DNA of 64,000 nucleotides from NCBI GenBank assembly GCA_038245785.1, contig JBBRSB010000003.1, forward strand, positions 128,001-192,000. The letters run 5' to 3'. Below the pieces are notes generated by a model, which was not told the DNA's origin, did not search any database, and was given only the letters and a program-made list of their open reading frames with translations. Positions 15,751-41,399 of the stretch are shown in pieces. The position numbers were made by a program, and so were the translations under genes. Source of the stretch: Gloeobacterales cyanobacterium. Its GTDB lineage: Bacteria > Cyanobacteriota > Cyanobacteriia > Gloeobacterales > PMM-0068. Position 1 is the first letter of the stretch. Each line of letters begins with the position of its first letter.

Positions 15751-17907
15751 TTAAGGATGCTCTTCTTCTCTGTCTCCCTCACGCTGACGCAAGGCGGCAT
15801 TCTTGACCTTCAGGACTTGAATGCGACTGTTGAAGAAATCGCCGACGTACAGCTTACCTTTGTAGTAGTGAGCACCAGCGGTCCAGTTGAAGAGTCCCGG
15901 TTCAGGCAGAGGTTGTCCTGGTTGGAGAATGTTCTGGGGACCCGCATTGGGGACGGGTTTACCAAAGCTCGTCAGGAATTTTCCCTCCTTATTGAAGACT
16001 TGGATGCGGCTGTTGATCGAGTCTGCTACATAAACATTGTCGAACTCATCCACCTCCACCCCGATCGGCTGATTGAGCTGTCCAGGTCCAACACCCGGCT
16101 CCCCAAACGCAAACAGGGGCTGACCTACAGGACTAAGCACTTGGATGCGGTTGTTTAATTGGTCTCCTACATAAATTTTGCCTGTTGTTGGGGAAACGGA
16201 AATCCCAGAGGGTCCTTGAAACTGTCCAAGTTCTTTACCCGGTGAGCCGATCTTATTGATCAGGTCGCCATTGCGATTAAAGACCTGGATAAAGTCGCTG
16301 CTAAAATCGGTCACGTACAGTTTGCCGCTCTTGTCGAAGGTTAAACCCCCTGGACCAGAGAAAGCCCGCCCTTCAACCGGAGCTCCAAAACTCCCAAAAG
16401 ACTTGATCGGGTTACCCTCACGGTCATAAACATTAATCCGGTTGTTAAAGACATCGCCTACATAGAGGTTGCCTGTTTCGTCGTCGAATTTCAGATCGGC
16501 GGGTTCATTGAGCTGTCCTAGACCCGTTCCACTGCTACCCACCGTTTTGACAAAGTTGCCGCGCTCATCGAAGACTTGCAGTCGGTCCCCTTCACCATCG
16601 CTTACCCAGACCTGTCCGGTGCTGGGCTGCACGGTAATACCCTGAGGAAGGAAAATATTCGCAGGTCCAAAGCCGGGGCTGCTAATCGTCGATTCGTACT
16701 TCAATTTGACCGATTCACTCTTTTTCACCTTGTCAATCTTCACCTGTAGCACCTGTCCAAGACCGGGACTGGCTCCTTTGTTGGTGATGTAGATGGTGTC
16801 ATCGGCCGCAATCGCCAGGGCTGTCGGAGCATCCAGTCCATTGCCACTCAGCAACACCGTTCGCTTACCGTTCGGGGCGATTTTGATCAGCGAACCTTCC
16901 ATCGCTCCTGGCGTCATTTTCCAGGAAGCTTCGTTATAGATCTGAAGCACGTACAGATTGCCCTTGCTGTCGAACTCTAAGTCGCCAAGCTGAGTAAAAC
17001 CGGTTGCAAAGACTTCCGACTTCCCATCTCTGCCAACGCGGAGGATTCTGGCTGCACCTTCGGGATAAGGGAATCCTGTAAATTCGCTGGTGTAAACTGC
17101 GCCATCAGGGCCGACGGCAACCCCCGTGGGTACTGATTGCACTTCCTTGGGACCAGGAGGAGGAGCACCGCCGGGAGGAGCTGGTTGGTTAGGGTCAGGT
17201 GGGGGGAAAACAGGGTTATCAATGAACTGCGTGGGGAGCCCAAATCCTTCTGCCTTACCGTCTGTCAAGCGCACCGAGTAAAGCGAGTTACCCCCTGCAT
17301 CCACAATGTACGCCTCACGGCCCTTGATCGCCACCGCATAGGGATTGGTGATTTTGCAGCCTAGAAAGTCAACTGCAGTGCACTTATCGGGATCATTATC
17401 TAGCTCGTATTGAGCGATGTCCAACAGACTTGTCAACTGGCCTGAACCTAAGTCGAATTTGTAAAACTGTCCAAAGGTCGGTTCTTGAAAAACGGCTTCG
17501 CGGTTTGCTGGGTCTCCTGCAAATCCATAAACTAGGTAGGCATTCCCTTCGGCATCAAACTGTATGTCCTGGGGACCCGCTCCTTCATTACCACTGGGCT
17601 GCAAGGCAAGAGAGGGCAGATTAGAAAAAATCCGCTCTTGCTTACCGTCTTTAATGCGGGTAATCGCCCCTGTATTGCCTACACAGAGAGGCAAACCTTG
17701 GACGCTTGGGGAAGGAATACAAGCGCCGCCGCCGCCAATGCCTGCTTCCGTTACATAGACGCTGCCGTCGGGACCGATGCCCAAGCCACGAGCGTTGTCT
17801 AGCTTGTCAGCAATGACTTTGTAGGTTGCGACTTCCTGCGCCGCGACAGGATAGGTCGTTGCTAAGCCGAGAGCAAGCAGGGCAACGATTGAGTTCTTGA
17901 ATTTCAT
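15751..17907 (-). CDS. Fused ScyD/ScyE-family + ScyF-like NHL-repeat secreted protein
   Basis: Signal peptide; ScyD/E-like N-half (LDNARGL, YVTEAGIGG, TNPY, QSVPT, EFTGFPYPEG); NHL-repeat C-half (PQGI, NNRINVY, NSRIQVF); follows scyC. Confidence 0.8.
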   Translation of the reverse strand: MKFKNSIVALLALGLATTYPVAAQEVATYKVIADKLDNARGLGIGPDGSVYVTEAGIGGGGACIPSPSVQGLPLCVGNTGAITRIKDGKQERIFSNLPSLALQPSGNEGAGPQDIQFDAEGNAYLVYGFAGDPANREAVFQEPTFGQFYKFDLGSGQLTSLLDIAQYELDNDPDKCTAVDFLGCKITNPYAVAIKGREAYIVDAGGNSLYSVRLTDGKAEGFGLPTQFIDNPVFPPPDPNQPAPPGGAPPPGPKEVQSVPTGVAVGPDGAVYTSEFTGFPYPEGAARILRVGRDGKSEVFATGFTQLGDLEFDSKGNLYVLQIYNEASWKMTPGAMEGSLIKIAPNGKRTVLLSGNGLDAPTALAIAADDTIYITNKGASPGLGQVLQVKIDKVKKSESVKLKYESTISSPGFGPANIFLPQGITVQPSTGQVWVSDGEGDRLQVFDERGNFVKTVGSSGTGLGQLNEPADLKFDDETGNLYVGDVFNNRINVYDREGNPIKSFGSFGAPVEGRAFSGPGGLTFDKSGKLYVTDFSSDFIQVFNRNGDLINKIGSPGKELGQFQGPSGISVSPTTGKIYVGDQLNNRIQVLSPVGQPLFAFGEPGVGPGQLNQPIGVEVDEFDNVYVADSINSRIQVFNKEGKFLTSFGKPVPNAGPQNILQPGQPLPEPGLFNWTAGAHYYKGKLYVGDFFNSRIQVLKVKNAALRQREGDREEEHP

Positions 17908-18053
17908 AATTCTCCATAATTGACACTACATGAACGTGTTGGTTGATTGAGGCCATGGGCAATCCAGTACTCCAGCAACACCACGGGAGTACTCGTTGCG
18001 GGAGAGAAGACGATCCCGCCGATCCAAACGGAACGAGCAAACACTGCTGCTCT

Positions 18054-19013
18054 TTAGGCAACGGGGAGATAGCTCATTCCCCGTTCAAACGTGGCAAGAT
18101 TGCCCGCTTTTGCTTCCAGCAAGCGCTTGATATTCATACTTTCAGCGCCGTAGTCCTCGATTTGAAGTCTGCCGTGGGGCATAGGCTTCTGGAGGTCCCA
18201 AAAGGTAATACGGTGCTGAATAAGACCCTGCGCAGCATCATCCCCAAAGGCATAGGAGCAGGGTACGAGCAGCGTTGGGCAGCGCTGCATAAATTGATAG
18301 TCAGGATAGAAATAGTCCTGTTCGATCAGGGAGTACTTACCGAGCGAGTGGACTCGGAATGTCACCTGCACGGTGCGATTGTACTCGTCCAAAAACTCGC
18401 CCGACTGAGCGTTTTTCTCTGAGGTCACATCACCTTGTGGCCGAAGCAAGTGACACCACTCTTTGTGATTATCTAGATTGCCGATATAGTCGACGGCAAG
18501 GTCTAAGGGAGCATCCACGTAGATTGAATCTGTGTCAATCTTGTAGCGGCCGACGGCAGCAGCGGTATTCCCCTGCTTGCGCTCTAAAATTGCTTTCAGG
18601 GAGCGACATTCGGCGGTATGCACCGTGTGCACACCCTCCATAATCATCGGCGTGCGGCGGCGCGGATCGATAAAGCTGAGCCAATGGAAGTAAACGCCCG
18701 CCTCGTCTAGTCCTGGGTGGACATAGCCCGGCGGAAACAGCAGTACGGGATAAACCTGAAAGTATTTGTTGTATTCGAAGCCGCAGTGCCACTCGATTCC
18801 ATAAAAGAGTGGATTTTCAATTTTGCGAACGTGGTAGTAAAGATCGTTTTGGTAGCCGGAAGCTGTGCCCCGCCAGGTCTGCTCATCAATCTGTTCAATC
18901 ATGTTGCTGAACAGCGTCCACTCATCCAGGTTCTGCAGTTCGTACAGATAGTCGAAGGCTGTTTTGGGATCTGTGGCAATGTAGGCAGAGGTAGCAAATG
19001 TATTTTTTTCCAT
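18054..19013 (-). CDS. scyC: Scytonemin biosynthesis cyclase/decarboxylase ScyC
   Basis: MEKNTFATSAYIAT, GIEWHCG, ECRSLK, AESMNIKR; position after scyB. Confidence 0.9.
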   Translation of the reverse strand: MEKNTFATSAYIATDPKTAFDYLYELQNLDEWTLFSNMIEQIDEQTWRGTASGYQNDLYYHVRKIENPLFYGIEWHCGFEYNKYFQVYPVLLFPPGYVHPGLDEAGVYFHWLSFIDPRRRTPMIMEGVHTVHTAECRSLKAILERKQGNTAAAVGRYKIDTDSIYVDAPLDLAVDYIGNLDNHKEWCHLLRPQGDVTSEKNAQSGEFLDEYNRTVQVTFRVHSLGKYSLIEQDYFYPDYQFMQRCPTLLVPCSYAFGDDAAQGLIQHRITFWDLQKPMPHGRLQIEDYGAESMNIKRLLEAKAGNLATFERGMSYLPVA

Positions 19014-19027
19014 CGGTTACTTCTTGG

Positions 19028-20137
19028 TTACTCCTGCACAAGTTGTCTACGTTCAAGGTTGGGAAGGGCATACGAGGGCAGCAGATGCCGTCCAATTCCT
19101 TCGCTTTTTGATTTTTCAATCAGCTTTTTAGCCAAGTGTTGTGCAGCCTCCTGGGTAGTTATTTCAGCTTGTTCGGCGTGCTCAAAGATCTCTAGCAAGG
19201 TGCCGTAGATATTGCTTAGCTGCGTTTGGACGCGCCCTTCGTGGTAGCCAATCATTTCGTTGTAGACATTGATCAAACCGCCCGCATTAATCACATAGTC
19301 TGGGCAGTAGAGAATATTCCTAGCCGTGAGCAGCCGACTGTGTTTTTGCTCATCATCCAGTTGGTTGTTGGCAGCACCGGCGACGATAGAAGCTTGCAGG
19401 CGCGGAATTGTCGTATCGTTCAGCACCCCTCCCATTGCACAAGGAGAGAAGACATCAACAGATAGGTCATAGATGGCATCAGGATCGATGATGGTGGCTC
19501 CATAGAGGTCAGCCATTTCCTGCGCTCGTTCCTGTCGCACATCGCTGACAAAAAGCTCGGCTCCCCGCTCTGAGAGAAGTTGGCACAGGACTTGACCGAC
19601 ATTGCCCAACCCCTGCACCGCCACTTTTAACCCTTCAAAGCTTTGCCGCTGCAGACGGAATTCGACAGCGGCCTGCATGCCGAGCAGCACTCCTGCCGCC
19701 GTTAAGGGAACAGGACCGCCAGATTCTGCCTTCACGCCCATTACATAACTGGTTTCACGGTGAATTTGATGGACGTCACGCAGCGAAATATTGACATCCT
19801 GGCCCGTAATAAACTGCCCTTTGAGCCGCTCTATAAATCGGCCATAGGCTCTAAGTAGGCGGTCATTTTTTTGTTTTGGATCGGCAATGATCACGCCTTT
19901 GCCACCGCCCACCGGAATACGGGCACAGGCCGCTTTGTAGGTCATACCCCGACTAAGGCGCAGGGCATCACGCAGGGCAGCATCCTCGCTGGCATAGGGG
20001 AAAAGGCGCGTGGCGCCCATCGCTGAACCGAAGTCTGTGTTGTGCAGCGCAATGATCGCTTTGAGACCAGTCGCTGGGTCGTGGCAAAAGAGAACCTGCT
20101 GATGCTCTGTTTCTCTGGTCGTTTCAAACAGTTTCAC
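19028..20137 (-). CDS. scyB: Tryptophan dehydrogenase (Leu/Phe/Val dehydrogenase family) ScyB
   Basis: LSRGMTYK, GGGKGVI, QGLGNVG, PDYVINAGG; lies between scyA and scyC. Confidence 0.9.
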   Translation of the reverse strand: MKLFETTRETEHQQVLFCHDPATGLKAIIALHNTDFGSAMGATRLFPYASEDAALRDALRLSRGMTYKAACARIPVGGGKGVIIADPKQKNDRLLRAYGRFIERLKGQFITGQDVNISLRDVHQIHRETSYVMGVKAESGGPVPLTAAGVLLGMQAAVEFRLQRQSFEGLKVAVQGLGNVGQVLCQLLSERGAELFVSDVRQERAQEMADLYGATIIDPDAIYDLSVDVFSPCAMGGVLNDTTIPRLQASIVAGAANNQLDDEQKHSRLLTARNILYCPDYVINAGGLINVYNEMIGYHEGRVQTQLSNIYGTLLEIFEHAEQAEITTQEAAQHLAKKLIEKSKSEGIGRHLLPSYALPNLERRQLVQE

Positions 20138-20222
20138 GTGTACGATCTCCTCTTTGTTTTGCTGCTGGTTGTGACTTAAGCCCTTATTTAGCAGGGGGTT
20201 TAGCGTTTACTGCTGCCTGAAA

Positions 20223-22121
20223 TTATTCTGTAAGCGGAAAAGAAACCTGTTTAGCCGAACTTGTAGGTTCTCTAAGCTGGATGAGGCTATCGTTCCGGCC
20301 TCGGGACGGGGCAGGTCGATCGGGGTCGATCAGCACATCTATAACAAAGGGTCCCGTCGCTGACATGGCCTGCGTGAGCGCCTGCTCCAAGTCACTTTCC
20401 TGATGAACCCGAATACCGTTCGCGCCCATACCTTGGGCAATCGCCACAAAATCAGTGTCTGGAATCATCGCATCAGCACCCTTGAGTCCAAGCATGGCCA
20501 TCCCTTGAACGCACATGTTGTAGCGAGCATCATTGAGAACAATCCAAACGGCTGGGACTTGATGCTTGACAGCGGTGCTAATTTCGTTGTTCATCAGCAT
20601 TGAGCCATCCCCTGTAATCACTACTGCCTTACGTTTAGCAGCTTGAGCGAGACCGACCACGCCTGTAACCATATGACCCATGGCGCCGAGCCCGGTACTG
20701 ACGCGATAGCGCCGTGGGTGAGAGAAGCGGAGTCGATGGGTCGCCCAAGTAAAGGAGTTGCCCGACTCCGCTAGCACAATCGCATTACTGCGGTCGATAA
20801 CGAGTCGCTGGATCACATCCATCAATACTTCTGGGCGGACTAAGGAGCTATGGGAGCCATTGCTGCTGGGCAGGGTGGCGACATGAGGACGGGGAAATGT
20901 CGGTGCTGGTTGGCTCGCTGGATCAGGGAAATGCTGCAGCAGCTCTGTCATAAACAAATTAATCTCAGCCTGGATTGGCAGGGTCGGGGCCAGCGGATAG
21001 GCCACCCCTGGCACATTGGGGTCAATATCGACATGCAGAAAGCCGCCCGACGGAACCATGGCGGCACTCCAAAAAGAGGTGGGCTCACCCAAGCGGGTAC
21101 CAAGAACAAGAATGTGCGCTGGAGGCTGTTCGCGCATGTAGGTCAGAACGGACTCATGCCCTCCCACTCCAGTCACGCCAACAAACTGAGGATGGTCTTC
21201 TGGGAAAATGCCTTTGCCACGCGGAGAACACATGACCGCCGCCCCAGTCCGTGCTGCCAGCTGGCGAATTGGTTCTGCGGCTAGCCGTGCACCAAAGCCG
21301 AGCCAGATAGCAAAGGGGGCAGAGGCTAAAATCTGCGCACAGTGGGCGATGGTTGACGCACTGGGTATGATTTGAAACTGATGAGGCTGAGCAGTCTCAA
21401 GGGTTGGGAAGGTTGGGACGTGAGCAGGGGAAACCAGACTCGACTGCACCCCGGTTGGAATGCTGATGTGCGCGACAAAACTTCCTGGTTGAGCCAGACC
21501 CAGTGCCAACCGGCGGGCAACTTGGGGCAACTCTTCTGGCGATTCTAAGGTCATGGCATAGTCAAAAAGCGCACCAGCGGTGAAGATGCCGCTATGAGGC
21601 ATGCTGTGAATACTGGTTTCCTGGATCGCACCTCGTCCTCGTTGAGCGGCTGAAGTACAGGCCGACAGGAGAATTACTTTTGCGCCTTCCCCCCGCGCCG
21701 CTAGCAATCCCGTAAGCGCATTGGTAATTCCTGGACCGGCTGTGGTGAATACGACCGTAGGTAAATCGCTGGCAAAATGGGCTTCGGTGGCAGCAAAGGC
21801 CGCACCCCCTTCATGGCGACAGTGAATGACAGAAATCTTTTGACTGTGAGAGAGGGAAAGCCAGAGAGAGGCGACGGCTCCCCCAGCGACCCCAAAGGCC
21901 GACTGAACACCCAAGTTCTCCAGCACGTTTACCAGTGCATTAGTGACTGTTAAAGGAGCAGCTAGCGGTGTGAAGCCAACTGCCATTTCGTCGGATTGAG
22001 ACTGATGACTGTTATCTCTTTCGGAAATAATGCGATCGGCCACTACGGATGGGACGGGCGCAGCAGCAATGTCAAGTCTGGGAACAGCTTCAGCGAATTT
22101 GTGAGATTTTTGAGTACTCAT
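20223..22121 (-). CDS. scyA: ThDP-dependent acyloin synthase ScyA
   Basis: CRHEGGAAF, TAGPGITN, ThDP motif GDGSMLMNNE...NDARYN; start set at MSTQK. Confidence 0.9.
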   Translation of the reverse strand: MSTQKSHKFAEAVPRLDIAAAPVPSVVADRIISERDNSHQSQSDEMAVGFTPLAAPLTVTNALVNVLENLGVQSAFGVAGGAVASLWLSLSHSQKISVIHCRHEGGAAFAATEAHFASDLPTVVFTTAGPGITNALTGLLAARGEGAKVILLSACTSAAQRGRGAIQETSIHSMPHSGIFTAGALFDYAMTLESPEELPQVARRLALGLAQPGSFVAHISIPTGVQSSLVSPAHVPTFPTLETAQPHQFQIIPSASTIAHCAQILASAPFAIWLGFGARLAAEPIRQLAARTGAAVMCSPRGKGIFPEDHPQFVGVTGVGGHESVLTYMREQPPAHILVLGTRLGEPTSFWSAAMVPSGGFLHVDIDPNVPGVAYPLAPTLPIQAEINLFMTELLQHFPDPASQPAPTFPRPHVATLPSSNGSHSSLVRPEVLMDVIQRLVIDRSNAIVLAESGNSFTWATHRLRFSHPRRYRVSTGLGAMGHMVTGVVGLAQAAKRKAVVITGDGSMLMNNEISTAVKHQVPAVWIVLNDARYNMCVQGMAMLGLKGADAMIPDTDFVAIAQGMGANGIRVHQESDLEQALTQAMSATGPFVIDVLIDPDRPAPSRGRNDSLIQLREPTSSAKQVSFPLTE

Positions 22122-22357
22122 CCTTGCTTTTCTCCTGATGAAATCTGGACTGCAATAAACTTTGAGAGGCACTAAAACAGCCAGTCTTTTAAACTTGATG
22201 AGTCAACAAAAATAGTCATCAAATACCGATAGAAATCAGTTTAAAACACATAAATAATGCATTGAGATTCACAGAGTGACTATGCAAAGCAAAACATTCT
22301 GTATCATCTTTTTTCATCTGTAGAGCTCAATCACAACTCAGTAACAGTAGCAATTGA

Positions 22358-22434
22358 AGTTTAATCAGACTTACAAAGCAGCACAAGGACATTTTTTTTG
22401 ACATCTCTAAAAAAATGTCCATTCTTTCGATAAG
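22358..22434 (-). promoter_or_regulatory. Putative scyA promoter with shared direct-repeat operator
   Basis: Minus strand: CTTATCGAAAGAATGGAC...ATGTCAAAAAAAATGTCC-TTGTGC-17 nt-TAAACT; near-identical architecture upstream of eboB. Confidence 0.6.
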
Positions 22435-22604
22435 GTCGCGCGTTATACAAGAGTTCCACGACACGAAAATCACCATCAATTTATATACTAAGATCTTGGC
22501 ATCAAAGCTTTTATACCCAAAGAGTGAAGACAATTTTTTCTCATGCTGAAGTAATTCACAAGCTAAGCTACTGCTCTACCATTGCGAATGAGAACCAACT
22601 GGAG

Positions 22605-22667
22605 ATACTAAAGAATAGACACTTACCCTATCGAGTTGGAAAAGCATCAAAAAATTTGTCCTTGCCC
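22605..22667 (+). promoter_or_regulatory. Putative trpE-operon operator / -35 with the same motif
   Basis: ATACTAAAGAATAGAC...GCATCAAAAAATTTGTCC-TTGCCC; -10 box unclear. Confidence 0.45.
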
Positions 22668-22845
22668 ATCAATAATTGCAAGTGCCAGTATTGAGACTCG
22701 TAAAGGCAATTGCTAGTAGCAACCCAAACGAACTGTTTACTTTATCGACTGGTTGCAGTGAAGCTTGAGCTGATGCACAACTTCCAGTTATTCACTCTAT
22801 CTAGCTAGCGACTCGATCACGAGAACAACCCCAAGGGAATTCTTA

Positions 22846-25086
22846 ATGAATTTTGACTTCCATCGCTATAAGACTTACGGAGGGATCCGCATATCGCGCT
22901 CCGTTTCCAAGGTCGATCAAGACACGGCAATTGACCACGTGCGGTCGCAGCTCAATGTCCAGCGGGGAGCCTTGCTGTCTAGCAGCTATGAGTATCCAGG
23001 ACGGTATAAGCGCTGGGCAATCGGTTTTATCAACCCGCCTCTGGAGCTGTCTACGCGCGGAAACACCTTTAAGCTGACGGCCCACAACGAGCGCGGGGCA
23101 TTACTGCTCCCTTTGTTGGCAGAGCGACTACAGGCGCAGGCGCAAATCCAGCACGTGCAGAGGGCGCAGTACACGATTGAAGGCGCGATTGTCCCTGTCA
23201 CAGAACCCTTTGCCGAAGAGGAACGCAGTCAGCAGCCATCCGCGTTCAGCGTCATTCGCGCGCTGCTGGATTTGTTCGCCAGTCCGGAAGATGAACACTT
23301 GGGGCTCTATGGTGCCTTTGGCTATGATTTGGTCTTTCAATTTGAACCGATTCAACAAGCGCTGCAACGTCCAGCGGATCAGCGCGACTTGGTACTGTAC
23401 CTACCCGATGAGCTAATCGTTGTCGACTACTACCTGCAGCAGACTTTACGCTACACCTATGATTTTGAGACTGCCCATGGCAGCACCTCTGGTTTGGCGC
23501 GCACGGGCGAGGTGATCGACTACCGAGGCACCAGTGTTATCGATCAGCAAAGCGTGCCCTCGACACCTTCGACACCCGTATCTGGAGCCTATGCTGCCCA
23601 AGTTGAAGAAGCCAAGAAGTATTTCTGTCGGGGCGACCTCTTCGAAGTCGTGCTCAGTCAACAATTCTCCACTGCTTGTCAAGCATCCCCCGTCCAACTC
23701 TTCCAGACGCTTCAGCAAATCAACCCCAGCCCCTATGGTTTTCTACTCAACCTCGGCGGTGAGTATCTGATTGGAGCCTCGCCTGAGATGTTTGTGCGCG
23801 TGGAAGGCAAGCGCGTGGAGACCTGCCCGATTAGCGGCACGATTCTGCGCGGGCAAGACGCCATGGGAGATGCCGAGCAAATTCGTCAGCTGCTCAACTC
23901 CTATAAGGACGAGACGGAACTAACGATGTGTACGGATGTCGACCGCAACGACAAATCGCGCGTCTGTATTCCTGGCAGCGTGAAGGTGATTGGTCGTCGT
24001 CAAATTGAGCTATACAGCCATGTGATTCACACGGTCGATCATGTGGAAGGCATTCTGCGACCGGAATTTGATGCCCTGGATGCTTTTTTGTCCCATACCT
24101 GGGCCGTCACGGTCACAGGTGCTCCGAAGCGGGCGGCGATGCAGTTTATCGAACGTCATGAAGACAGTGCGCGGCGATGGTATGGCGGTGCCGTCGGACG
24201 CCTTACGTTTAATGGCGATATGAATACGGGCTTAACGCTGCGCACCATCCGCTTTCAGAATGCGGTCGCAGAAGTTCGGGTCGGTGCTACTCTACTCTAC
24301 GATTCCGTTCCCGAGGATGAAGCGCAAGAGACCTTGACCAAGGCAGCAGCTTTATTTGAGACCTTGAATAAAGCTGCCACCGGGGCTTTCGTTCCGCCAA
24401 AAGTCCGTCGAGGCGTTCCCATCGCAAGCAGTGAGGCGCAAGCCAGAGCCAGTTCAGGCAAGCGCGTTCTTTTGATTGACTACGAGGATTCTTTTGTCCA
24501 TACCCTGGCGAATTACATCCGCCAAACCGGGGCGACGGTCACTACTTTACGTCATGGTTTCTCCGTAGAGACCTTTGAGCGTGAACGTCCCGATCTAGTT
24601 GTGCTCTCTCCAGGACCGGGCAGACCGAACGACTTTCATGTTCCGCAAACGGTCCGAGATTGCATCCAGCGGCAAATCCCTCTATTTGGCGTGTGCCTAG
24701 GTCTGCAGGGAATTGTCGAAGCCTTGGGTGGAACGCTGGGCGTTCTGAACCCACCGCAGCACGGCAAGTCCTCTGAATTAAGGGTTACGGACCAAGAGTC
24801 TGCCCTGTTCCAAGGATTGCCTGAAGTATTTCCAATCGGGCGCTACCACTCGCTCTATGCCCTGCCTGAGCGGCTCCCTGGGGATCTTAAGGTCACGGCG
24901 CTATCTCAGGACAACGTAATCATGGCCGTTGAGCATCGTCATCTACCAATTGCGGCAGTGCAGTTCCATCCTGAATCGATCATGACTTTAGCCGGAGATG
25001 TGGGTTTGGCCATTATCCAGAACGTGCTCCAGACCTATGCCACAGCGTCTACGACCATAGAGGCAAGGCCAACTCCTGTGCGCTGA
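22846..25086 (+). CDS. trpE: Anthranilate synthase, fused TrpE-TrpG
   Basis: SSYEYPGRY, PISGT, MCTDVDRNDK, TGAPK; GATase SPGPGRP, GVCLG, QFHPES. Confidence 0.93.
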   Translation: MNFDFHRYKTYGGIRISRSVSKVDQDTAIDHVRSQLNVQRGALLSSSYEYPGRYKRWAIGFINPPLELSTRGNTFKLTAHNERGALLLPLLAERLQAQAQIQHVQRAQYTIEGAIVPVTEPFAEEERSQQPSAFSVIRALLDLFASPEDEHLGLYGAFGYDLVFQFEPIQQALQRPADQRDLVLYLPDELIVVDYYLQQTLRYTYDFETAHGSTSGLARTGEVIDYRGTSVIDQQSVPSTPSTPVSGAYAAQVEEAKKYFCRGDLFEVVLSQQFSTACQASPVQLFQTLQQINPSPYGFLLNLGGEYLIGASPEMFVRVEGKRVETCPISGTILRGQDAMGDAEQIRQLLNSYKDETELTMCTDVDRNDKSRVCIPGSVKVIGRRQIELYSHVIHTVDHVEGILRPEFDALDAFLSHTWAVTVTGAPKRAAMQFIERHEDSARRWYGGAVGRLTFNGDMNTGLTLRTIRFQNAVAEVRVGATLLYDSVPEDEAQETLTKAAALFETLNKAATGAFVPPKVRRGVPIASSEAQARASSGKRVLLIDYEDSFVHTLANYIRQTGATVTTLRHGFSVETFERERPDLVVLSPGPGRPNDFHVPQTVRDCIQRQIPLFGVCLGLQGIVEALGGTLGVLNPPQHGKSSELRVTDQESALFQGLPEVFPIGRYHSLYALPERLPGDLKVTALSQDNVIMAVEHRHLPIAAVQFHPESIMTLAGDVGLAIIQNVLQTYATASTTIEARPTPVR

Positions 25087-26026: not shown

Positions 26027-26045
26027 CCCTTACGGTCTCACTTCT

Positions 26046-29391: not shown

Positions 29392-29422
29392 TCTGCCATC
29401 TGTTTCACAGGAGCGCACAAGG

Positions 29423-30532: not shown

Positions 30533-30661
30533 ATGGGCAGCACTTTTGGACATTTGTTTCGGGTATCTACCTTTGGAAAGTCTCACGGCGACGAGGTGGG
30601 GGCGATTGTCGAAGGCTGTCCACCCTGTAGACGAACTCTTCAATTTGCGACCAAGAGCTGA
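30533..30661 (+). pseudogene. aroC: Chorismate synthase 5' stub
   Basis: [31 protein letters not shown] matches the AroC N-terminus (TFGESHG...GCPP); similarity ends near 30625 where it meets the convergent regulator gene. Confidence 0.85.
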
Positions 30662-33588: not shown

Positions 33589-34515
33589 ATGCTTATTTTT
33601 TCTACTGAGGTCCATGAGGATACCCGTGGGATTCGGGATTTGCTGCAACACTGGTTATCTTCACAACTCTCGCCTGAGGCCCTTGTCTGGCTGAAGACTG
33701 CCATCTCGCAATCGTGCCAAGCATTTTCAGAGCAGACTTTTTTCACTGCTTTCAGCACCCTGCCACGCCGAGTGGGAAAACACGATCTGGCGCTTACTAG
33801 TGCTGAATTAGCGCAGGCCGATAACCTGTGTCCAGGCTGGTATCCCAAGGCATGGAGCGTTGACCAGGCGGCGCGTGCGCTGCTCTTGCTCAGTCTGCCC
33901 CAGGCAGAGACGGGCTCGATGAACGAGCTCTTTGAGAAACTGTACGCTACTGCTGGCATGGCAGAAGCGGTGGCACTGCACCAGACTTTGCCCCTGCTAG
34001 GTCATGGTGAACGCTATGAATACTGGGCCTTAGAGGGAGTTCGGAGTCACATCACGGCTGTCTTTAATGCGGTTGCACTCTGGAACCCCTATCCGGCTCG
34101 TCAATTTGATCAGGCAACCTGGAATCAACTGGTGTTGAAGGCCATTTTTGTAGGTAGTCCCTTGTACCCCATCTGGGGACTGGATGCTCGAGCGAATCCT
34201 GAACTAGCGCGGATGCTGATCGACTATGTTCATGAGCGATGGGCAGCCCATCGGGAAGTGACGCCGGAACTATGGCGCTTGCTAGCCCCGTTTATTGATC
34301 AGATCGACCAGGCGGTGCTACTCGATTTAGCACGAGCCCTAAAGTCAGCGAACGAGACTCAACGCCAAGCGGTGGGTTTGGCCTGTGTTCAATCGGCGCT
34401 TCCGAGCGCTCTAGACTTACTTCAAGTGCATCCCGACTTGAACAGATTAATTCAGGCAGGAACGCTAACTTGGGAGAGCATTTACCGTAACCAGCTGCAA
34501 ATCAGTGCAAGCTGA
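33589..34515 (+). CDS. eboA: EboA domain protein
   Basis: WSVDQAARALLL, NPYPA..F..TWNQLVLKAIF, DYVHERWAAHR. Confidence 0.88.
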   Translation: MLIFSTEVHEDTRGIRDLLQHWLSSQLSPEALVWLKTAISQSCQAFSEQTFFTAFSTLPRRVGKHDLALTSAELAQADNLCPGWYPKAWSVDQAARALLLLSLPQAETGSMNELFEKLYATAGMAEAVALHQTLPLLGHGERYEYWALEGVRSHITAVFNAVALWNPYPARQFDQATWNQLVLKAIFVGSPLYPIWGLDARANPELARMLIDYVHERWAAHREVTPELWRLLAPFIDQIDQAVLLDLARALKSANETQRQAVGLACVQSALPSALDLLQVHPDLNRLIQAGTLTWESIYRNQLQISAS

Positions 34516-34523
34516 CGGTCCTG

Positions 34524-34745: not shown

Positions 34746-35684
34746 ATGCCAGATAGCGCTCCTCCCATCTCCCGGCCCAAGATCTGGATTGATCCACACA
34801 TCCATATGACGTCCCGTACGACCTATGACTACCGTTTGATGAGGCAGCAAGGAATCGTGGCTGTTATTGAGCCGTCCTTTTGGCTGGGGCAGCCTCGCAC
34901 CAACGTCGGGACATTTCAGGACTACTTCAGCAGTCTGGTGGGCTGGGAACGCTTCCGAGCCGGACAGTTTGGCATTCGCCACTACTGCACCATCTGCCTC
35001 AACCCAAAGGAAGCGAATAATCCTGCGATTGCCGATGAGGTAATGGCCATGCTTCCTCTCTATCTATGCAAGGAGGGCGTTGTGGCCGTTGGTGAAATTG
35101 GCTACGACTCGATGACAGCGGCAGAGGACAAGTATTTCAGACTGCACTTAGAGATGGCAAAGGAATTCAAAAAGCCTGTCCTGGTCCACACGCCCCATCG
35201 GAACAAGAAGGAAGGAACCTTGCGCAGCTTAGAAGTCTGCCTGGAGCATGGCATCGATCCAAAGCTGGTAGTGATAGACCATGCCAACGAAGAGACTGTC
35301 CAGGCCATTCTCGATCGAGGCTTTTGGGCAGCGTTTTCGATCTATCCAAAGACCAAGATGGGCAATGAACGAATGACTGAAATTGTTCGGCAGTATGGTT
35401 CCGAGCGAATCATCGTCAATAGTGCAGCCGACTGGGGAATCAGCGACCCTCTGGCTGTACCGAAAACGGCTCAACTGATGCTGGAGCGAGGGATTCCTGA
35501 GGCCGATGTGACGGCAGTCTGCTATGGCAACGCGCTGGCAGCCTATAGCCAAAGCGGTGAAATGAGCGAAGCGGACTGGCTCAGTCCAGAACCCGTGGAC
35601 CAACGGCAGCTTTTCGATGGCAACTCAGTGCTTCGGGGCCAGGAACCGATAACACAAGAAGCAGAGTCGCTCGTTATTGTCTAA
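34746..35684 (+). CDS. eboB: TatD-family metallo-hydrolase EboB
   Basis: IDPHIHMTSRT, GEIGYD, VHTPH, IDHANE, NSAADWG. Confidence 0.88.
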   Translation: MPDSAPPISRPKIWIDPHIHMTSRTTYDYRLMRQQGIVAVIEPSFWLGQPRTNVGTFQDYFSSLVGWERFRAGQFGIRHYCTICLNPKEANNPAIADEVMAMLPLYLCKEGVVAVGEIGYDSMTAAEDKYFRLHLEMAKEFKKPVLVHTPHRNKKEGTLRSLEVCLEHGIDPKLVVIDHANEETVQAILDRGFWAAFSIYPKTKMGNERMTEIVRQYGSERIIVNSAADWGISDPLAVPKTAQLMLERGIPEADVTAVCYGNALAAYSQSGEMSEADWLSPEPVDQRQLFDGNSVLRGQEPITQEAESLVIV

Positions 35685-35762
35685 GGTTGGTGTTTTGAAC
35701 TTCTGAGCTAGAAAGAGGTGCTATGACCGCGCCCAATTCCGAATTGCATCAGAGGGAAGCAG

Positions 35763-36674
35763 ATGATTTCAGCGCAGAGTACGACAAACCGCTTGGTGGC
35801 CTATCTTCAGATGATGCGTCCTGCCAATATTGTGACGGCGTGGGCAGATATTCTGGCAGGCTATGCGGCAGCGGGTTTAGGAGCTATTACTCCTGACCCT
35901 ACGGCTATCTACCCCTTGCTCTGGCTGCTGTTAGCCACAACCGGGCTGTACGGAGGCGGGGTTGTATTCAACGACGTGTTCGACGCCAAGCTGGATGCCC
36001 AAGAGCGTCCCGAGCGTCCGATTCCCAGTGGCCGCAGTTCGGTGCAAGAAGGCATCGTTCTGGGCATCGGTTTACTGACCCTTGGCATTGTGGCAGCGGC
36101 CCAGGTATCAGCGATCAGTGCGGGGATAGCAGTCGCGATTGCCCTGGCAGCGCTGCTATACGATTCCGTGGGTAAACACCACGCTCTGATAGGCCCCCTG
36201 AATATGGGGCTGTGTCGGGGTGGAAACCTGTTGCTGGGCGTGAGCGCCGTGCCTGTAATGCTCCAAGAGCGCTGGTTTTTGGCAGCGATTCCGGTCTTAT
36301 ACATTGCGGCGATTACGCTGATCAGTCGCGGTGAAGTGCATGGTGGAAATCGAATGGCTGGACAAGTTTCTCTGGTGGCCTTGGCCCTGGTGTGCGCCGG
36401 GTTAATTGGGCTAAGCCTGTTGCCCAGCTATGGACTACTGCCGATGCTGCCCTTCGGGGTGTTTTGGGGAATATCGGTGATTCCAGCCTTTGTCAAAGCT
36501 AGCCGTGAACCCAGTGCTGCCCTAATTCGCCATGCAGTCCGCTCGGGAGTAATCTCCCTGATCGTCCTCAATAGTGCCCTTGCAGCAGGCTTCAGCCACT
36601 GGCTTTATGGTTTAGCGGTTTTAAGCTTGTTGCCCCTATCTCGATTTTTAGCTAAACAATTTGCGGTGACCTAG
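35763..36674 (+). CDS. eboC: UbiA-like prenyltransferase EboC
   Basis: RPANIVTAWAD, NDVFDAKLDAQERPERPIPSG, MGLCRG. Confidence 0.9.
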   Translation: MISAQSTTNRLVAYLQMMRPANIVTAWADILAGYAAAGLGAITPDPTAIYPLLWLLLATTGLYGGGVVFNDVFDAKLDAQERPERPIPSGRSSVQEGIVLGIGLLTLGIVAAAQVSAISAGIAVAIALAALLYDSVGKHHALIGPLNMGLCRGGNLLLGVSAVPVMLQERWFLAAIPVLYIAAITLISRGEVHGGNRMAGQVSLVALALVCAGLIGLSLLPSYGLLPMLPFGVFWGISVIPAFVKASREPSAALIRHAVRSGVISLIVLNSALAAGFSHWLYGLAVLSLLPLSRFLAKQFAVT

Positions 36675-37883
36675 ATGTATCTCAGCCTGAGCAGTCCGCC
36701 CCAGTTCCTAGAATCAACATTGAAACCGCTGCAGCAGTCTATAACGGTTCGGTTTGACTATTCAGTGCACTTCACCCATGGCCTGTTTCAGTTACACAAT
36801 CCCCTGCTGGCAGAGATATTAGCGGCTGAGCAGACAACGCAACCAGCTGCCGTACTGGTCATTATCGACGGCGGTCTCCTATCATCCCAACCGCAACTAC
36901 TAGAGAAAGTAACAGCCTACGCTGAGCATTACCAACAGGCGATTTGCCTCAAAGCCGTGCCCTTGGTCGTAGTCGGGGGAGAGGCAGCCAAGAACGATCC
37001 AGCCTGTGTGGAGCAGATTCAGCGACTGATCAGTGAGGCCCGCTTATGCCGGCATTCCTATGTCGTGGTGATTGGGGGTGGAGCTGTTTTAGATATGGTC
37101 GGTTATGCTGCAGCCACTGCCCATCGCGGAGTGCGTCTTATCCGAGTGCCAACGACAGTACTGGCCCAAGATGACTCTGGAATCGGCGTAAAAAATGGGG
37201 TTAATGCCTTTGGCAAGAAGAATTTCCTAGGTACGTTTGCTCCACCCTATGCCGTTATTAATGACGCGGACTTTCTGCGAACGCTGGGTCAGCGGGATTG
37301 GATAGCCGGAGTAATAGAAGCGCTTAAAGTAGCGTTGATTAAAGATGCGGACTTTTTTCAGTACATCGAGGCCAACACAAACGCCTTGGTCAAGCGTGAA
37401 CTGTCGGTCATGCAACAGGTCATCTATCGCTCTTGCCAACATCACTTGCATCATATCGGCAGCTATGGCGACCCGTTTGAAATGGGTTCATCGCGCCCCC
37501 TCGACTTTGGGCACTGGGCCGCCCATCGCCTGGAGCATTTGACGAACTATCGTCTCCGACATGGCGAAGCAGTAGCGATCGGTATTGCCCTCGATAGCAC
37601 CTATGCCTGCTTTGCCGGACTGCTGCCAGCAGAAGACTGGACCCGGATCTTAAATGCATTGCAGGCACTGGGATTTGCACTTTATGCGCCGGAATTGGGC
37701 GCATTTTCAGAACAACCAGAGCATCCGCAGTCGATTTTTCAGGGGCTGACTGAATTTCGAGAACATCTAGGCGGAGCGTTAACCCTAATGCTATTGGCTG
37801 GTATAGGCACTGGGGTGGAAGTGCATCAAATCAACCTGGAACTATATCAACAGGCGATTACCTATTTGAAAGCACTGAAATGA
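36675..37883 (+). CDS. eboD: 3-dehydroquinate synthase-like sugar phosphate cyclase EboD
   Basis: GGGAVLD, PTTVLAQDDSGIGVKNG, RPLDFGHWAAH, RHGEAVAIG. Confidence 0.88.
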   Translation: MYLSLSSPPQFLESTLKPLQQSITVRFDYSVHFTHGLFQLHNPLLAEILAAEQTTQPAAVLVIIDGGLLSSQPQLLEKVTAYAEHYQQAICLKAVPLVVVGGEAAKNDPACVEQIQRLISEARLCRHSYVVVIGGGAVLDMVGYAAATAHRGVRLIRVPTTVLAQDDSGIGVKNGVNAFGKKNFLGTFAPPYAVINDADFLRTLGQRDWIAGVIEALKVALIKDADFFQYIEANTNALVKRELSVMQQVIYRSCQHHLHHIGSYGDPFEMGSSRPLDFGHWAAHRLEHLTNYRLRHGEAVAIGIALDSTYACFAGLLPAEDWTRILNALQALGFALYAPELGAFSEQPEHPQSIFQGLTEFREHLGGALTLMLLAGIGTGVEVHQINLELYQQAITYLKALK

Positions 37884-37908
37884 AGACCTAGCACAGGCAG
37901 GAGACCTC

Positions 37909-38739
37909 ATGAGCGCTAACGACCGATTTCATCTCACTTACTGCACAAACACCGATTCCGGCGAGACGTGGCAAGCGGTTTGGACCAATCTGCAGCGACC
38001 TATGCCCGGGCTAAAGCAATCACCATCACCGGACCAACCCTTTGGCATTGGCTTGCGCTTAGCGAATCTGGCCAGTCAAGAACTTCTGGTCAATAGACGG
38101 CTTACTGACCTCAAAGCGCGGCTGGCGGCAGAAAAGATCTATGCTTTCACCCTGAATAGTTCTCCCTATGGCAGCTCCCATCATCACGTGAGAAGAGATC
38201 AGGTCTATAAACCGGATTGGAGCACAGTAGGACGGCTCTTACACACGAGGCGATTGGCACGGATTCGAGCAAAGCTGCTACTGGACGGAACGGAGAGCCA
38301 TATTTCCAACCTACCGCATTCCTGCAAGCCCTGGTTTTTCGGCATCCCAGAAGCGCGGGCTCTGGTATTTCAGTCGAGTACTGTGGCCCTCACGACCTTA
38401 GTCATGAATCTGGTCAATTTTGCTGGACTGCTGCCAGTGGAAGACTGGGTGCGGATCTTGAAAGCATTGCAGGCACTGGGATTTACGCTACACGTGCCAA
38501 AATTGGGCGCATTTTCAGAAGAACCAGAGCGTCTGCAGTCGGTTTTCCAAGGGCTGACTGAATTTCGAGAACATCGAGGGGGAAAGTTAGCCCTAAGGCT
38601 ATTGGCCGGTATCAGCGCTGGGGTGGAAGTGCATCAAATCAACCTGGCCCTGTATCAGCAGACGATTGCCTGTTTGCAAGTACTGGACCAGAGACCTCTA
38701 GAGTTTCCAGCACAGCGCAGGAGATCTCATGCGTATTAA
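37909..38739 (+). CDS. Chimeric EboE(N-terminal)-EboD(C-terminal) ORF from a tandem duplication; possibly decaying
   Basis: Residues 1-170 align with the EboE N-terminus; from FAGLLP (38419) it aligns with the EboD C-terminus. Confidence 0.75.
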   Translation: MSANDRFHLTYCTNTDSGETWQAVWTNLQRPMPGLKQSPSPDQPFGIGLRLANLASQELLVNRRLTDLKARLAAEKIYAFTLNSSPYGSSHHHVRRDQVYKPDWSTVGRLLHTRRLARIRAKLLLDGTESHISNLPHSCKPWFFGIPEARALVFQSSTVALTTLVMNLVNFAGLLPVEDWVRILKALQALGFTLHVPKLGAFSEEPERLQSVFQGLTEFREHRGGKLALRLLAGISAGVEVHQINLALYQQTIACLQVLDQRPLEFPAQRRRSHAY

Positions 38740-39976
38740 CGACCGATTTCATCTTACCTACTGCACAAACACTCATCCTGGCGAGACGTGGCAAGCGGTT
38801 TGGACCAATCTTCAGCAATATTTGCCTGGGCTGAAGCAGTCGCTATCACCGGATCAACCGTTTGGTATTGGCTTGCGCTTAGCAGATCTGGCCAGTCGAG
38901 AACTTTTGGTGGGCGACCGACTGGCGAAGCTTAAAGCGTGGCTGGAGACAGAGAATCTCTATGTCTTTACCCTGAATGGTTTTCCCTACGGCAGTTTCCA
39001 TCACCAAGTCATAAAAGACCAGGTCTATGCTCCAGATTGGACCACGGTCGAGCGGCTAGAGTACACAAGGCGATTGGTAAAAGTTCTAGCAGAGCTGCTG
39101 CCGGAAGGGATGGAAGGCAGTATTTCCACCCTACCGCTCTCCTACAAGCCTTGGTTTTTCGGTACGCCAGAAGCGCTGGATCCCGTATTTCAGTCGAGTG
39201 CCGTTGCCCTCGCGGCCTTAGTGATAGATCTGGTCAATCTCCAGGCGAAAACAGGCAAACTAATTCATCTGGGCCTCGAACCGGAGCCAGATGGACTTTT
39301 GGAAAACACGCAGGAAGTGGTGACCTTTTTCGATCGCTGGCTTTTGCCCTGCGGGAGCACAGAACTTATGCAGCACTTCGGGATCTCTAACGACAAGGCT
39401 CTAGCGTGTCTGCGCAACCACCTCCGAGTCTGCTACGACACCTGTCACTTTGCCGTGGAATATGAAGAGCCTGAAATCGCCCTACGCCAGTTGCAAGAGG
39501 AAGGAATTGGAGTCAGCAAAATTCAACTCAGTTCAGCGGTGCGCATTCCAATTCCGGCTGAGCTAGCAGAACGTCAAGCGATTTTACAGCGACTACAGCC
39601 CTTTGCCGAATCGACCTATCTGCACCAGGTGATCGCCAGACAGCCAGACGGCAGGCTGAAAACAGACGGCAGGCTGAAACGGTACCGTGATTTAGAGCAA
39701 GCGCTACCAGAATTCCTGACAACAGACGCAGCGGAGTGGCGTACCCATTTCCATGTCCCCATTTTTCTCCAAGACTATTCGCTGCTGCAATCAACGCAGG
39801 AACATCTTGTAAAAACCTTGTCTTATCTGCAGGCATTTCCCCTCTCTAGCCATCTCGAAATCGAAACCTATACCTGGGACGTATTGCCCGCCGACATCAA
39901 GTTTAATCTCGCCCACTCGATTCAACGCGAGTATGACTGGGTGCTGCAGCAATTGCGGATTCCAATCGTGGTTTAG
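38729..39976 (+). CDS. eboE: Metabolite traffic protein EboE (xylose isomerase-like TIM barrel)
   Basis: HLTYCTNTHPGE, NGFPYG, LEPEPD, CYDTCH, STYLHQV, HFHVP, EIETYTW. Confidence 0.9.
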   Translation: MRINDRFHLTYCTNTHPGETWQAVWTNLQQYLPGLKQSLSPDQPFGIGLRLADLASRELLVGDRLAKLKAWLETENLYVFTLNGFPYGSFHHQVIKDQVYAPDWTTVERLEYTRRLVKVLAELLPEGMEGSISTLPLSYKPWFFGTPEALDPVFQSSAVALAALVIDLVNLQAKTGKLIHLGLEPEPDGLLENTQEVVTFFDRWLLPCGSTELMQHFGISNDKALACLRNHLRVCYDTCHFAVEYEEPEIALRQLQEEGIGVSKIQLSSAVRIPIPAELAERQAILQRLQPFAESTYLHQVIARQPDGRLKTDGRLKRYRDLEQALPEFLTTDAAEWRTHFHVPIFLQDYSLLQSTQEHLVKTLSYLQAFPLSSHLEIETYTWDVLPADIKFNLAHSIQREYDWVLQQLRIPIVV

Positions 39977-40025
39977 TCCGTCACAGCCAATCTACACCTA
40001 ACCTTTTCACCCAAGCTCCTAACCG

Positions 40026-41399
40026 ATGATGCAAAGAACCGCTGTCCTGAATGTTGTTGGACTGACTCCCGCTTGCCTCGGTGCTCATATGCCGAAGCTG
40101 ACAGCTTGGGCAGTACGGGGGCAACAAGCGAACATCACACCGATGCTGCCAGCGGTGACCTGTAGCGTTCAAGCGACCTATCTCACCGGCAAATATCCCA
40201 ATGAGCACGGCATTGTCGCCAATGGTTGGTACTTTCGAGATGAGTGTGAGGTGAAATTTTGGAGACAGTCTAATGCTCTGGTACAGGCTCCAAAAATCTG
40301 GGAGATTGCCCGAGAAAGGGATCTCACCTTCACCTGCGCCAACTTGTTCTGGTGGTACAACATGTACTCCTCCGTCGACTACGCCGTCACACCACGCCCT
40401 ATGTATCCAGCAGATGGGCGTAAGCTACCGGATATCCATACCCACCCAGCCGCTATCCGTCCTAAGCTTCAAGAGGAACTTGGGCCATTTCCTTTATTCA
40501 AGTTCTGGGGGCCGGCAACGACGATTGAATCCAGTCAGTGGATTGCGAATTCAGCAAAGTGGATTGAAACAAACGCCAGTCCGACGCTCTCGCTGGTATA
40601 CCTACCCCATCTGGACTATTGCACCCAGAAAGTGGGCTCTACTCCAGCGCAGGACCTCCAGGAAATCGATGCCGTAGTCGGAGATCTGATTGAGTTCTAC
40701 GAGGCAAGAGGGGTACAGCCTGTCGTCCTCTCTGAATATGGCATTACGCCCGTTTCTCAGCCAGTGCACCTGAACCGAATGCTGCGCTCAGCGGGATTCC
40801 TCCAAGTTCGGACAGAGTTGGGCTTAGAACTACTGGATGCAGGGGCTAGTCAAGCGTTTGCTGTTGCTGACCATCAGCTAGCCCATGTCTACATCAATGA
40901 CCCCACCATTTTGGAGCAGGTGAAGGCACTTTTAGAGAAAACGCCAGGCGTAGCAAGGGTATTAGATGAGGCTGGCAAGCAGGAACAGTATCTAAACCAC
41001 GAACGTTCAGGTGAACTAGTGGTCATCGCCGAACCGCAAGCCTGGTTCACCTACTACTACTGGCTTGACGACACCAAGGCTCCCGACTTCGCCCGAACCG
41101 TCGATATTCACCGAAAACCAGGATATGACCCTGTGGAACTGTTTTTCGATCCCCAAATTCGTTTCCCCAAGCTAAAGGTTGCGAAAACGTTGCTCAAGCG
41201 CAGATTAGGAATGCGATCGCTGATGGACCTGACTCCGCTGAATGCCGATTTGGTGCGCGGATCTCACGGCCATCTACCAGGTTCATCAAGAGACTGGCCA
41301 ATGGTGATTACACAGAGGTCAGAGCTCTTACAAAGTGCCTCTATCTCTGCTGTCGATGTCTGTTCCCTGATTCTGAATCATTTGAACTTGAGCCCCTAA
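40026..41399 (+). CDS. eboF: Alkaline phosphatase / nucleotide pyrophosphatase family EboF
   Basis: PAVTCSVQ, YLPHLDY, SEYG, VADHQ, DIHRKPGYDP, GSHG. Confidence 0.88.
   Translation: MMQRTAVLNVVGLTPACLGAHMPKLTAWAVRGQQANITPMLPAVTCSVQATYLTGKYPNEHGIVANGWYFRDECEVKFWRQSNALVQAPKIWEIARERDLTFTCANLFWWYNMYSSVDYAVTPRPMYPADGRKLPDIHTHPAAIRPKLQEELGPFPLFKFWGPATTIESSQWIANSAKWIETNASPTLSLVYLPHLDYCTQKVGSTPAQDLQEIDAVVGDLIEFYEARGVQPVVLSEYGITPVSQPVHLNRMLRSAGFLQVRTELGLELLDAGASQAFAVADHQLAHVYINDPTILEQVKALLEKTPGVARVLDEAGKQEQYLNHERSGELVVIAEPQAWFTYYYWLDDTKAPDFARTVDIHRKPGYDPVELFFDPQIRFPKLKVAKTLLKRRLGMRSLMDLTPLNADLVRGSHGHLPGSSRDWPMVITQRSELLQSASISAVDVCSLILNHLNLSP

Follow-up and report, generated by a model that had tools for sequence, protein, structure and literature searches.

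The sunscreen pigment scytonemin is, in the published view, confined to one crown clade of cyanobacteria, and dates for the pigment and for the evolution of cyanobacteria themselves have been built on this confinement. According to the accessible sections of Tamre and Fournier (2022), horizontal gain of the pathway is not known for any group, its origin is dated to 2.18–2.03 billion years ago (Ga), and Gloeobacter violaceus is listed as lacking Scy proteins. The described system used here for comparison is that of Nostoc punctiforme ATCC 29133 (NpR1276–NpR1259 and NpF1277/1278, with the satellite ebo genes NpF5232–5236). Here, we report that the chromosome of a Gloeobacterales cyanobacterium carries a scytonemin supercluster. 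The cluster occupies positions 15751–41399, hereafter the island, of a 64-kb window, that is, the whole stretch of DNA analysed, which corresponds to positions 128001–192000 of the 230-kb contig C3 in the host genome G000 (5.0 Mb, 255 contigs, 98% complete). Profile scans and gene order confirm the cluster as genuine and apparently intact, and the divergence of its proteins relative to housekeeping markers makes it reasonably probable that it entered the lineage horizontally from the crown scytonemin radiation, either long ago or via an unsampled donor poor in the highly iterated palindrome HIP1. The cluster would represent either the first transfer of a whole pathway of about 25 kb across the deepest cyanobacterial split or evidence of a much older origin.

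Genes were called from the list of open reading frames (ORFs) and from Pfam and NCBIfam profile scans of 19 island ORFs. The initial annotation of this DNA had proposed scyABC with a combined D/E-F gene, a divergent trpEG-C-A-B-aroG-tyrA operon, an internal two-component pair and eboA–F, and each of these was recovered intact where it had been placed:

15751–17907, minus strand: scyE-F, in-frame fusion of 718 aa (NF033206, 408 bits, cut-off 80; NF035926, 456 bits, cut-off 350)
18054–19013, minus strand: scyC, cyclase/decarboxylase (NF035924, 577 bits, cut-off 400, full length)
19028–20137, minus strand: scyB, tryptophan dehydrogenase (NF035922, 573 bits, cut-off 600; ELFV dehydrogenase domains)
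20223–22172, minus strand: scyA, thiamine diphosphate (ThDP)-dependent acyloin-forming enzyme (NF035923, 960 bits, cut-off 1020; three TPP-enzyme domains)
22173–22845, no strand: AT-rich spacer of 673 bp, 37% GC, putative divergent promoter region between scyA and trpE-G
22846–25086, plus strand: trpE-trpG, fused anthranilate synthase (TIGR01815, 1171 bits)
25175–26026, plus strand: trpC (Pfam, NCBIfam)
26013–26891, plus strand: trpA (Pfam, NCBIfam)
26918–28159, plus strand: trpB (Pfam, NCBIfam)
28327–29391, plus strand: aroG, 3-deoxy-D-arabino-heptulosonate 7-phosphate (DAHP) synthase (Pfam, NCBIfam)
29375–30526, plus strand: tyrA, prephenate dehydrogenase (Pfam, NCBIfam)
30640–31437, minus strand: response regulator, receiver plus AraC-type helix-turn-helix domain (Pfam)
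31540–32772, minus strand: short scytonemin-type histidine kinase, 410 aa (NF045595, 400 bits, cut-off 865)
33589–34515, plus strand: eboA (EboA domain, 164 bits, cut-off 50)
34746–35684, plus strand: eboB, TatD-like (Pfam, NCBIfam)
35763–36674, plus strand: eboC, UbiA-like (EboC, 404 bits, cut-off 250)
36675–37883, plus strand: eboD, 3-dehydroquinate (DHQ)-synthase-like (PRK06203, 586 bits, cut-off 333)
37909–38739, plus strand: chimeric ORF of 276 aa, EboE N-terminus (profile 1–156) joined to EboD C-terminus (profile 307–398) (NCBIfam)
38729–39976, plus strand: eboE (EboE, 491 bits, cut-off 250)
40026–41399, plus strand: eboF, phosphodiesterase (Phosphodiest, 194 bits; 64–67% identical to crown eboF)

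By the ORF list and NCBIfam, 18 island genes are open and full length. ScyC, the ScyE family, ScyF, EboC and EboE all exceed their curated cut-offs; ScyA and ScyB score slightly below their equivalog cut-offs, though these are by far their best families, the next-best for ScyB reaching 78 bits. The best family of the kinase is HK_scytonemin, with its best match on profile positions 421–633 of 637. The order scyA-B-C is the one kept in the comparator loci, and the two-component pair, convergent with tyrA, is placed between tyrA and eboA.

The island and the Nostoc cluster agree in the scyA-B-C order and in encoding a ScyE-type protein and a ScyF with an export leader; both also hold dedicated copies of trpE/C/A/B, aroG and tyrA, a gene resembling DHQ synthase, ebo genes, and a sensor kinase together with an AraC-type regulator. 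Compared with Nostoc loci, ScyA and ScyB are each 60–65% identical and ScyC is 67–70% identical. In Nostoc, however, the trp/aro operon is co-oriented with scyA instead of divergent from it and the two-component pair lies upstream of scyA. The ebo genes, contiguous with the cluster in the window, form a satellite cluster in N. punctiforme (Soule 2009, accessible sections). The earlier account of the Nostoc layout was right in its gene list, which agrees with the accessible sections of Soule (2009), but wrong in drawing ebo into the co-oriented operon. The window further differs from Nostoc in lacking scyD, trpD, tyrP, dsbA, the NpR1270-type glycosyltransferase and NpR1259, in the fusion of ScyE to ScyF, and in a kinase of 410 aa against a scytonemin kinase profile of 637 positions. 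As the initial annotation had stated, the ORF, Pfam and NCBIfam scans found no trpD, tyrosinase, dsbA or second ScyD/E within the island; nor did the ORF and NCBIfam scans find the NpR1270-type glycosyltransferase or NpR1259 there.

A missing aroB had also been claimed, and this did not hold. The Nostoc DHQ-synthase-like gene after tyrA, which the accessible sections of Soule (2009) name aroB, is 61–65% identical to the window's eboD, whereas eboD and the host's true AroB share only 34% identity; the "aroB" of the cluster is thus present and had been counted as eboD. Housekeeping aroB is found on host contig C33, and trpD exists solely as a housekeeping copy on C30. Since separate copies of trpE, trpG, trpC, trpA, trpB and aroG, 33–75% identical to those of the island, are found elsewhere in the host genome, the island trp/aro genes constitute a dedicated second set; the trpE-G paralogues (C40/C10/C4) are 33–40% identical to the island copy, and trpC (C9), trpA (C1) and trpB (C30) are 53%, 58% and 75% identical. 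The trimmed gene set, which had been taken as special, is largely found in crown clusters too, the ScyE-F fusion excepted: a single ScyD/E occurs in 6 of the 24 loci in which copy number was examined, and tyrP, dsbA, the NpR1270-type glycosyltransferase and NpR1259 are likewise lacking from the clusters of Anabaena and Lyngbya (Table 1 of Soule 2009), so that such Nostoc accessory genes do not define the family.

The layout had likewise been called rearranged, but a trpE-C-A operon divergent from scyA was present in 9 of the 95 crown scy loci compared for gene order, including the nearest relative. This arrangement, trpE-trpC-trpA(-trpB), characterizes loci of the Oculatellaceae Prado106, Microseira and Lyngbya PCC 8106 type (L012, L016–17, L028, L033), in which ebo is linked, as in the window, wherever the locus is long enough to show it. 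The Oculatellaceae Prado106 locus (L012) is the nearest relative, with 78% identity in ScyC and 70% in concatenated ScyABC. Unlike the window, these loci belong to crown hosts, carry 9–18 HIP1 sites each against 1 in the island, and keep ScyE and ScyF as separate genes; in Microseira the regulator lies directly upstream of scyA and no kinase was found in the locus. Loci of the Chroococcidiopsis/Leptolyngbyaceae type (L013–15, L020, L043, L100) resemble the window in having one ScyD/E gene, of ScyE type, but they encode ScyE and ScyF separately and carry the regulator upstream of scyA, and in L013–15 and L020 no divergent trp operon was seen. For ScyC, Oculatellaceae Prado106 is the nearest named match, followed by Chroococcidiopsis, Leptolyngbyaceae and Microseira (72–74%) and then Nostoc. 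The metagenomic ScyC relatives closest to the window are 97% (P0002), 85% (P0003, on a 173-kb contig) and 80% (P0004) identical, and a metagenome scan yielded 15 other loci with ScyC relatives, the best at 74%.

The in-frame ScyE-ScyF fusion was seen in none of the 78 comparator loci having both a ScyE-type and a ScyF gene. The protein comprises a ScyE-type domain (aa 30–389) and a ScyF NHL domain (aa 394–704) behind a single N-terminal hydrophobic leader, which by eye resembles a signal peptide, and has no PEP-CTERM tail. In a D/E tree its N-terminal domain groups with ScyE rather than with ScyD, the split having a Shimodaira–Hasegawa-like approximate likelihood ratio test (SH-aLRT) value of 96. 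In Nostoc, scyE is essential, ScyD dispensable and ScyF adjuvant (Ferreira 2016, accessible sections). In a related strain represented in sequencing run X3, one A is missing from the A5 run at 16721, exactly at the ScyE/ScyF junction. With this deletion, translation of the ScyE portion would terminate some ten codons further on and the ScyF portion would lack a leader, and the fusion may thus be split or broken in that strain.

The host had been placed as a probable member of the Gloeobacterales, and this is confirmed by its sharing a GTDB order with genome G004, by GyrA and PheT trees and by the apparent lack of KaiB and PsaK. The window's GyrA is 96% identical to those of both genus-mates (G001 and G002), 69–72% to six same-order genomes and 61–68% to other full-length matches; in a protein search the best matches outside the genus were Gloeobacter violaceus (71%) and G. 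kilaueensis (69%), and the GyrA of G004, one of the six, matches a G. violaceus protein at 100% identity across 820 aa. In the GyrA and PheT trees (small, unrooted and built by fast search without support values), the window and Gloeobacter stand apart from nine crown genomes. KaiB and PsaK were not found in the 98% complete host genome while a Synechococcus elongatus control matched, and the accessible sections of Pessi (2023) describe a reduced gene set for the order, with no Kai clock and no PsaK. The noted scarcity of HIP1 extends to the whole host genome, with 242 sites in 5.0 Mb.

ScyC was found in only 1 of the 41 related genomes searched, the host itself, and in none of its 13 order-mates or 27 same-class genomes; EboE too was not found in G001 or G002. 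A scan of species-representative genomes gave 273 with ScyC relatives, and none of the 80 loci kept from these was titled Gloeobacterales, although the host's own genome may have been outside that scan. ScyC, ScyD and EboA–C were not found in Ca. Sivonenia alaskensis according to the accessible sections of Pessi (2023), and the accessible part of a gypsum-endolith paper naming both scytonemin and a Gloeobacterales-related term draws no link between them. That scytonemin has not been described in this lineage, as had been supposed, agrees with the literature found, which contains no report of a scy cluster for the order, though subscription journals and unopened supplements could hold one. As far as these searches show, the scytonemin cluster is new for Gloeobacterales.

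The case for horizontal entry is that the Scy proteins are only about half as diverged from their crown homologues as two housekeeping markers, GyrA and PheT, predict. The ratio of ScyABC to GyrA maximum-likelihood (ML) distance was 0.86–1.18 in 9 window–crown pairs against 1.55–2.39 in 36 crown–crown pairs, and that of ScyABC to PheT was 0.64–0.77 against 0.81–1.80, the pairs being non-independent. A linear fit to the crown pairs predicted Scy distances of 0.76–1.00, while those seen were 0.52–0.75 (residual standard deviation 0.06). A 37-row ScyABC tree under the posterior mean site frequency (PMSF) model paired the window with Oculatellaceae Prado106 (SH-aLRT 97), whose cluster has the divergent trpE-C-A layout as well. 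The island trp/aro copies resemble those linked to scy in crown genomes more closely than they do the host's other copies. The GC content at third codon positions (GC3) is 0.52–0.61 throughout the 16 biosynthetic genes, above the genome's 75th percentile, and in tetranucleotide distance the island ranks at the 96th percentile. The nearest sampled relative of the transferred cluster would then be that of Oculatellaceae, and the cluster would now be retained in one species-level clade of the genus. Several observations weigh against such a transfer. With a 20-taxon LG+F+G4 fast-search tree, a placement of the window as sister to every crown cluster was not rejected by the approximately unbiased (AU) test (delta log-likelihood 7.4, p 0.243). 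Long-branch effects are possible because no in-group branches are longer than those of the window and Oculatellaceae, and because the tree is rooted on a distant non-cyanobacterium of high GC. The 25.6-kb island has a single HIP1 site where 18 crown loci have 8–31 per locus (4.3–14.8 per 10 kb), which makes it unlikely that a typical crown donor passed on the cluster recently; HIP1 was accordingly discarded as a crown-donor signature. The compositional shift is mild, island GC3 overlapping that of the flanking host core genes, and the window–Oculatellaceae Scy distance of 0.52 equals a between-crown-order distance, which does not suit a transfer that was simple or recent. Pfam scans of 17 flank frames revealed no integrase or transposase domain, and the window has no tRNA. 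Finally, since G001 and G002 are sisters, gain in the host and loss in the genus-mates' ancestor are equally parsimonious within the genus. The gene adjacency shared by the genus-mates was rejected as a mark of polarity, as they are closer to each other (90–93% identical) than to the host (82–85%).

A rival reading is vertical inheritance from the last common ancestor of Gloeobacterales and the crown, the cluster then having been lost from almost every other member of the Gloeobacterales and from many lineages of the crown. Such descent is compatible with the AU result and the lack of mobility genes, with an LG+F+G4 tree in which the window and Oculatellaceae form the first branch next to the outgroup, with a ScyE domain that branches first within the ScyE clade and no ScyD duplicate, with HIP1 being equally scarce in island and host, and with the host-type dispersed repeats that abut scyE-F. 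We nevertheless hold it to be unlikely, given that Scy–crown distances average about 0.67 where about 0.9–1.15 is predicted from GyrA and PheT, that the ranges of the ratios do not overlap, that Oculatellaceae in particular is the partner of the window in ML and PMSF trees, and that the absence of ScyC from all order-mates would require several independent losses. It is correspondingly doubtful that the cluster is a relic of a form of scytonemin synthesis that used one ScyE, lacked ScyD and would predate the split between Gloeobacterales and other cyanobacteria; if it were, the sunscreen would be far older than the published 2.0–2.2 Ga, and Scy phylogeny would no longer be usable as a marker for the time after the Great Oxidation Event. 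The distance ratios indicate a scy coalescence younger than the host split and are silent on direction, so the pathway might also have arisen in the Gloeobacterales lineage and passed to the ancestor of the crown scytonemin clade, and the basal position of the window and Oculatellaceae in the Scy tree would fit this. With ScyC in 1 of 14 Gloeobacterales genomes, and with no locus titled Gloeobacterales in the species-genome scan described above, such a reversal appears very improbable. Still harder to credit is an assembly or binning artefact that spliced crown DNA into a contig of Gloeobacterales. Near 15.6 kb the junction does lie within short dispersed repeats, where assemblers can mis-join, but the island is situated mid-contig in the 230-kb C3 with host-lineage DNA on either side, and it is without the HIP1 density found in all 18 crown loci. 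Contigs of run X1 left of and within the island have even mean depths of 61.9, 62.3 and 61.5, evidence that is not independent since X1 is possibly the source of the assembly. Two other studies supplied runs X3 and X4, whose contigs cover host-flank and island pieces, those listed being about 91–97% identical, and related strains therefore also carry island genes.

By homology to Nostoc punctiforme, AroG, TrpE-G/C/A/B and TyrA would boost the supply of tryptophan and p-hydroxyphenylpyruvate, with housekeeping TrpD and AroB borrowed from elsewhere in the genome. ScyB, ScyA and ScyC would build the monomer in the cytoplasm, EboA–F would move it to the periplasm, and the secreted ScyE-ScyF fusion would act there, the divergent operons being controlled by the AraC-type regulator and the short kinase. 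Some features count against this prediction and would fit a cluster that is real but makes no scytonemin, being silent, decaying or devoted to a related indole alkaloid. ScyA, ScyB and the truncated kinase score below their NCBIfam cut-offs, and the island has no tyrP, dsbA, NpR1270-type glycosyltransferase or NpR1259. Three tested strains without tyrP made no scytonemin (Soule 2009, accessible sections). There is also a duplication scar in ebo (see below), besides the 1-bp deletion at the ScyE/F junction of the related strain. Yet all 18 genes are open and full length, those shown to be essential in Nostoc are all present (scyE, Ferreira 2016, accessible sections; the ebo genes, Klicki 2018), and island pieces persist at 91–97% identity in related strains, so that a non-producing cluster seems improbable. 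A functional cluster would offer a naturally trimmed gene set for heterologous production, without scyD, trpD, tyrP and dsbA and with ScyE fused to ScyF, and it raises the question of how a periplasm-dependent sunscreen pathway operates in a thylakoid-less cell with its photosystems in the cytoplasmic membrane.

The surroundings of the island contain the following features:

15156–15750, no strand: left junction or gap; synteny with both genus-mates stops at 15155
about 15409–15598, no strand: catalase remnant (PF00199 profile positions 346–382 of 383, E 2.5e-4, below cut-off)
15583–15622 and 15662–15710, no strand: dispersed repeats, 10–15 copies each across the host genome, on many contigs
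41400–47161, no strand: accessory segment of intact genes (DUF2283, two Uma2, a tetratricopeptide repeat (TPR) protein, a PIN protein) with no gene-length DNA counterpart in the genus-mates

Window positions 9390–15155 are collinear with G002 and 11491–15154 with G001, at 81–82% DNA identity, and beyond 15155 both genus-mates run into DNA found on host contig C15. The left-flank query gave nothing in the genus-mates past 15155 except one 40-bp match, and the right-flank query gave short, weak and scattered matches until gene-length similarity resumed at 47162. The glycosyltransferase at 13924–15105 is a host gene, common to both genus-mates and without a homologue in the 95 scy loci. X1 contigs stop on either side of the dispersed repeats, leaving 15611–15675 uncovered, and none of the listed X2–X4 contigs bridges 15105–15776, so the left junction is without independent bridging. 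In the catalase remnant, a few N-terminal codons are joined straight to the C-terminal ~50 codons; it was considered as a mark of ancestral adjacency and rejected, having no counterpart beside the glycosyltransferase in G001 or G002. The initial annotation had taken decayed DNA on both flanks to suggest horizontal acquisition. A horizontal origin is indeed favoured, by the distance ratios, but general decay of the flanks is contradicted by the single catalase remnant and the intact genes on the right side.

The chimeric ORF between eboD and eboE is explained by a tandem duplication of about 810 bp over the eboD 3' end and eboE 5' end (37611–39229), of whose junction it is the product. The copies, at 37611–38409 and 38419–39229, are spaced 808–820 bp apart and are 76–86% identical. 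No such EboE-N::EboD-C chimera was seen in the comparator loci. EboB, EboD and EboF are encoded by genes 57–74% identical to crown scy-linked copies. Within the 41 related genomes EboE occurs in three, the host and two further Gloeobacterales, G003 and G013, whose ebo loci read eboC-D-E-F (L107, G003:C1:125000–144999) and eboD-A-B-E-F (L108, G013:C352). Their ebo homologues are 48–74% identical to the window's, similar to the identities of crown copies, and unlike the host these two genomes have no ScyC anywhere. A concatenated EboB–F tree of 12 rows was an unresolved star in which native ebo and an arrival together with scy are indistinguishable.

The two-component pair and the rest of the island may differ in history, because the GC3 of the regulator and kinase (0.44–0.47) is that of the host average, unlike the biosynthetic genes, and because a paralogous kinase-regulator pair was observed on host contig C24. 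In the spacer between scyA and trpE-G there is a perfect palindrome at 22387–22420 with 12-nt arms and a 10-nt gap. Its reading as a conserved operator was dropped: the half-site GGACA followed by A or T occurs within 1.5 kb upstream of scyA in 8 of 91 loci, approximately the background frequency, and the exact matches in 11 Nostocales loci sit further upstream of scyA. Nor do the two AT-rich intergenic regions of the island have an 11-mer in common that could represent a shared regulator motif.

Among the comparator loci, two come from genomes with non-cyanobacterial titles, L027 (Legionellales, a Tatlockia metagenome-assembled genome, MAG) and L043 (a Candidatus Gracilibacteria MAG). Both show a typical cyanobacterial scyA-B-C, L043 groups with Hydrococcus, and the two contigs are probably mis-binned. 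A short contig, L103, harboured ScyA (56%) and ScyC (61%) homologues only. On the metagenome contigs L104 and L105, homologues of ScyA (54%) and ScyC (59%) lie close to trpE- and trpC-like genes, but ScyB is lacking from the vicinity, and the many long ORFs of these contigs in all frames were read as high GC (L105 inspected); they may represent a non-cyanobacterial relative of the scytonemin pathway.

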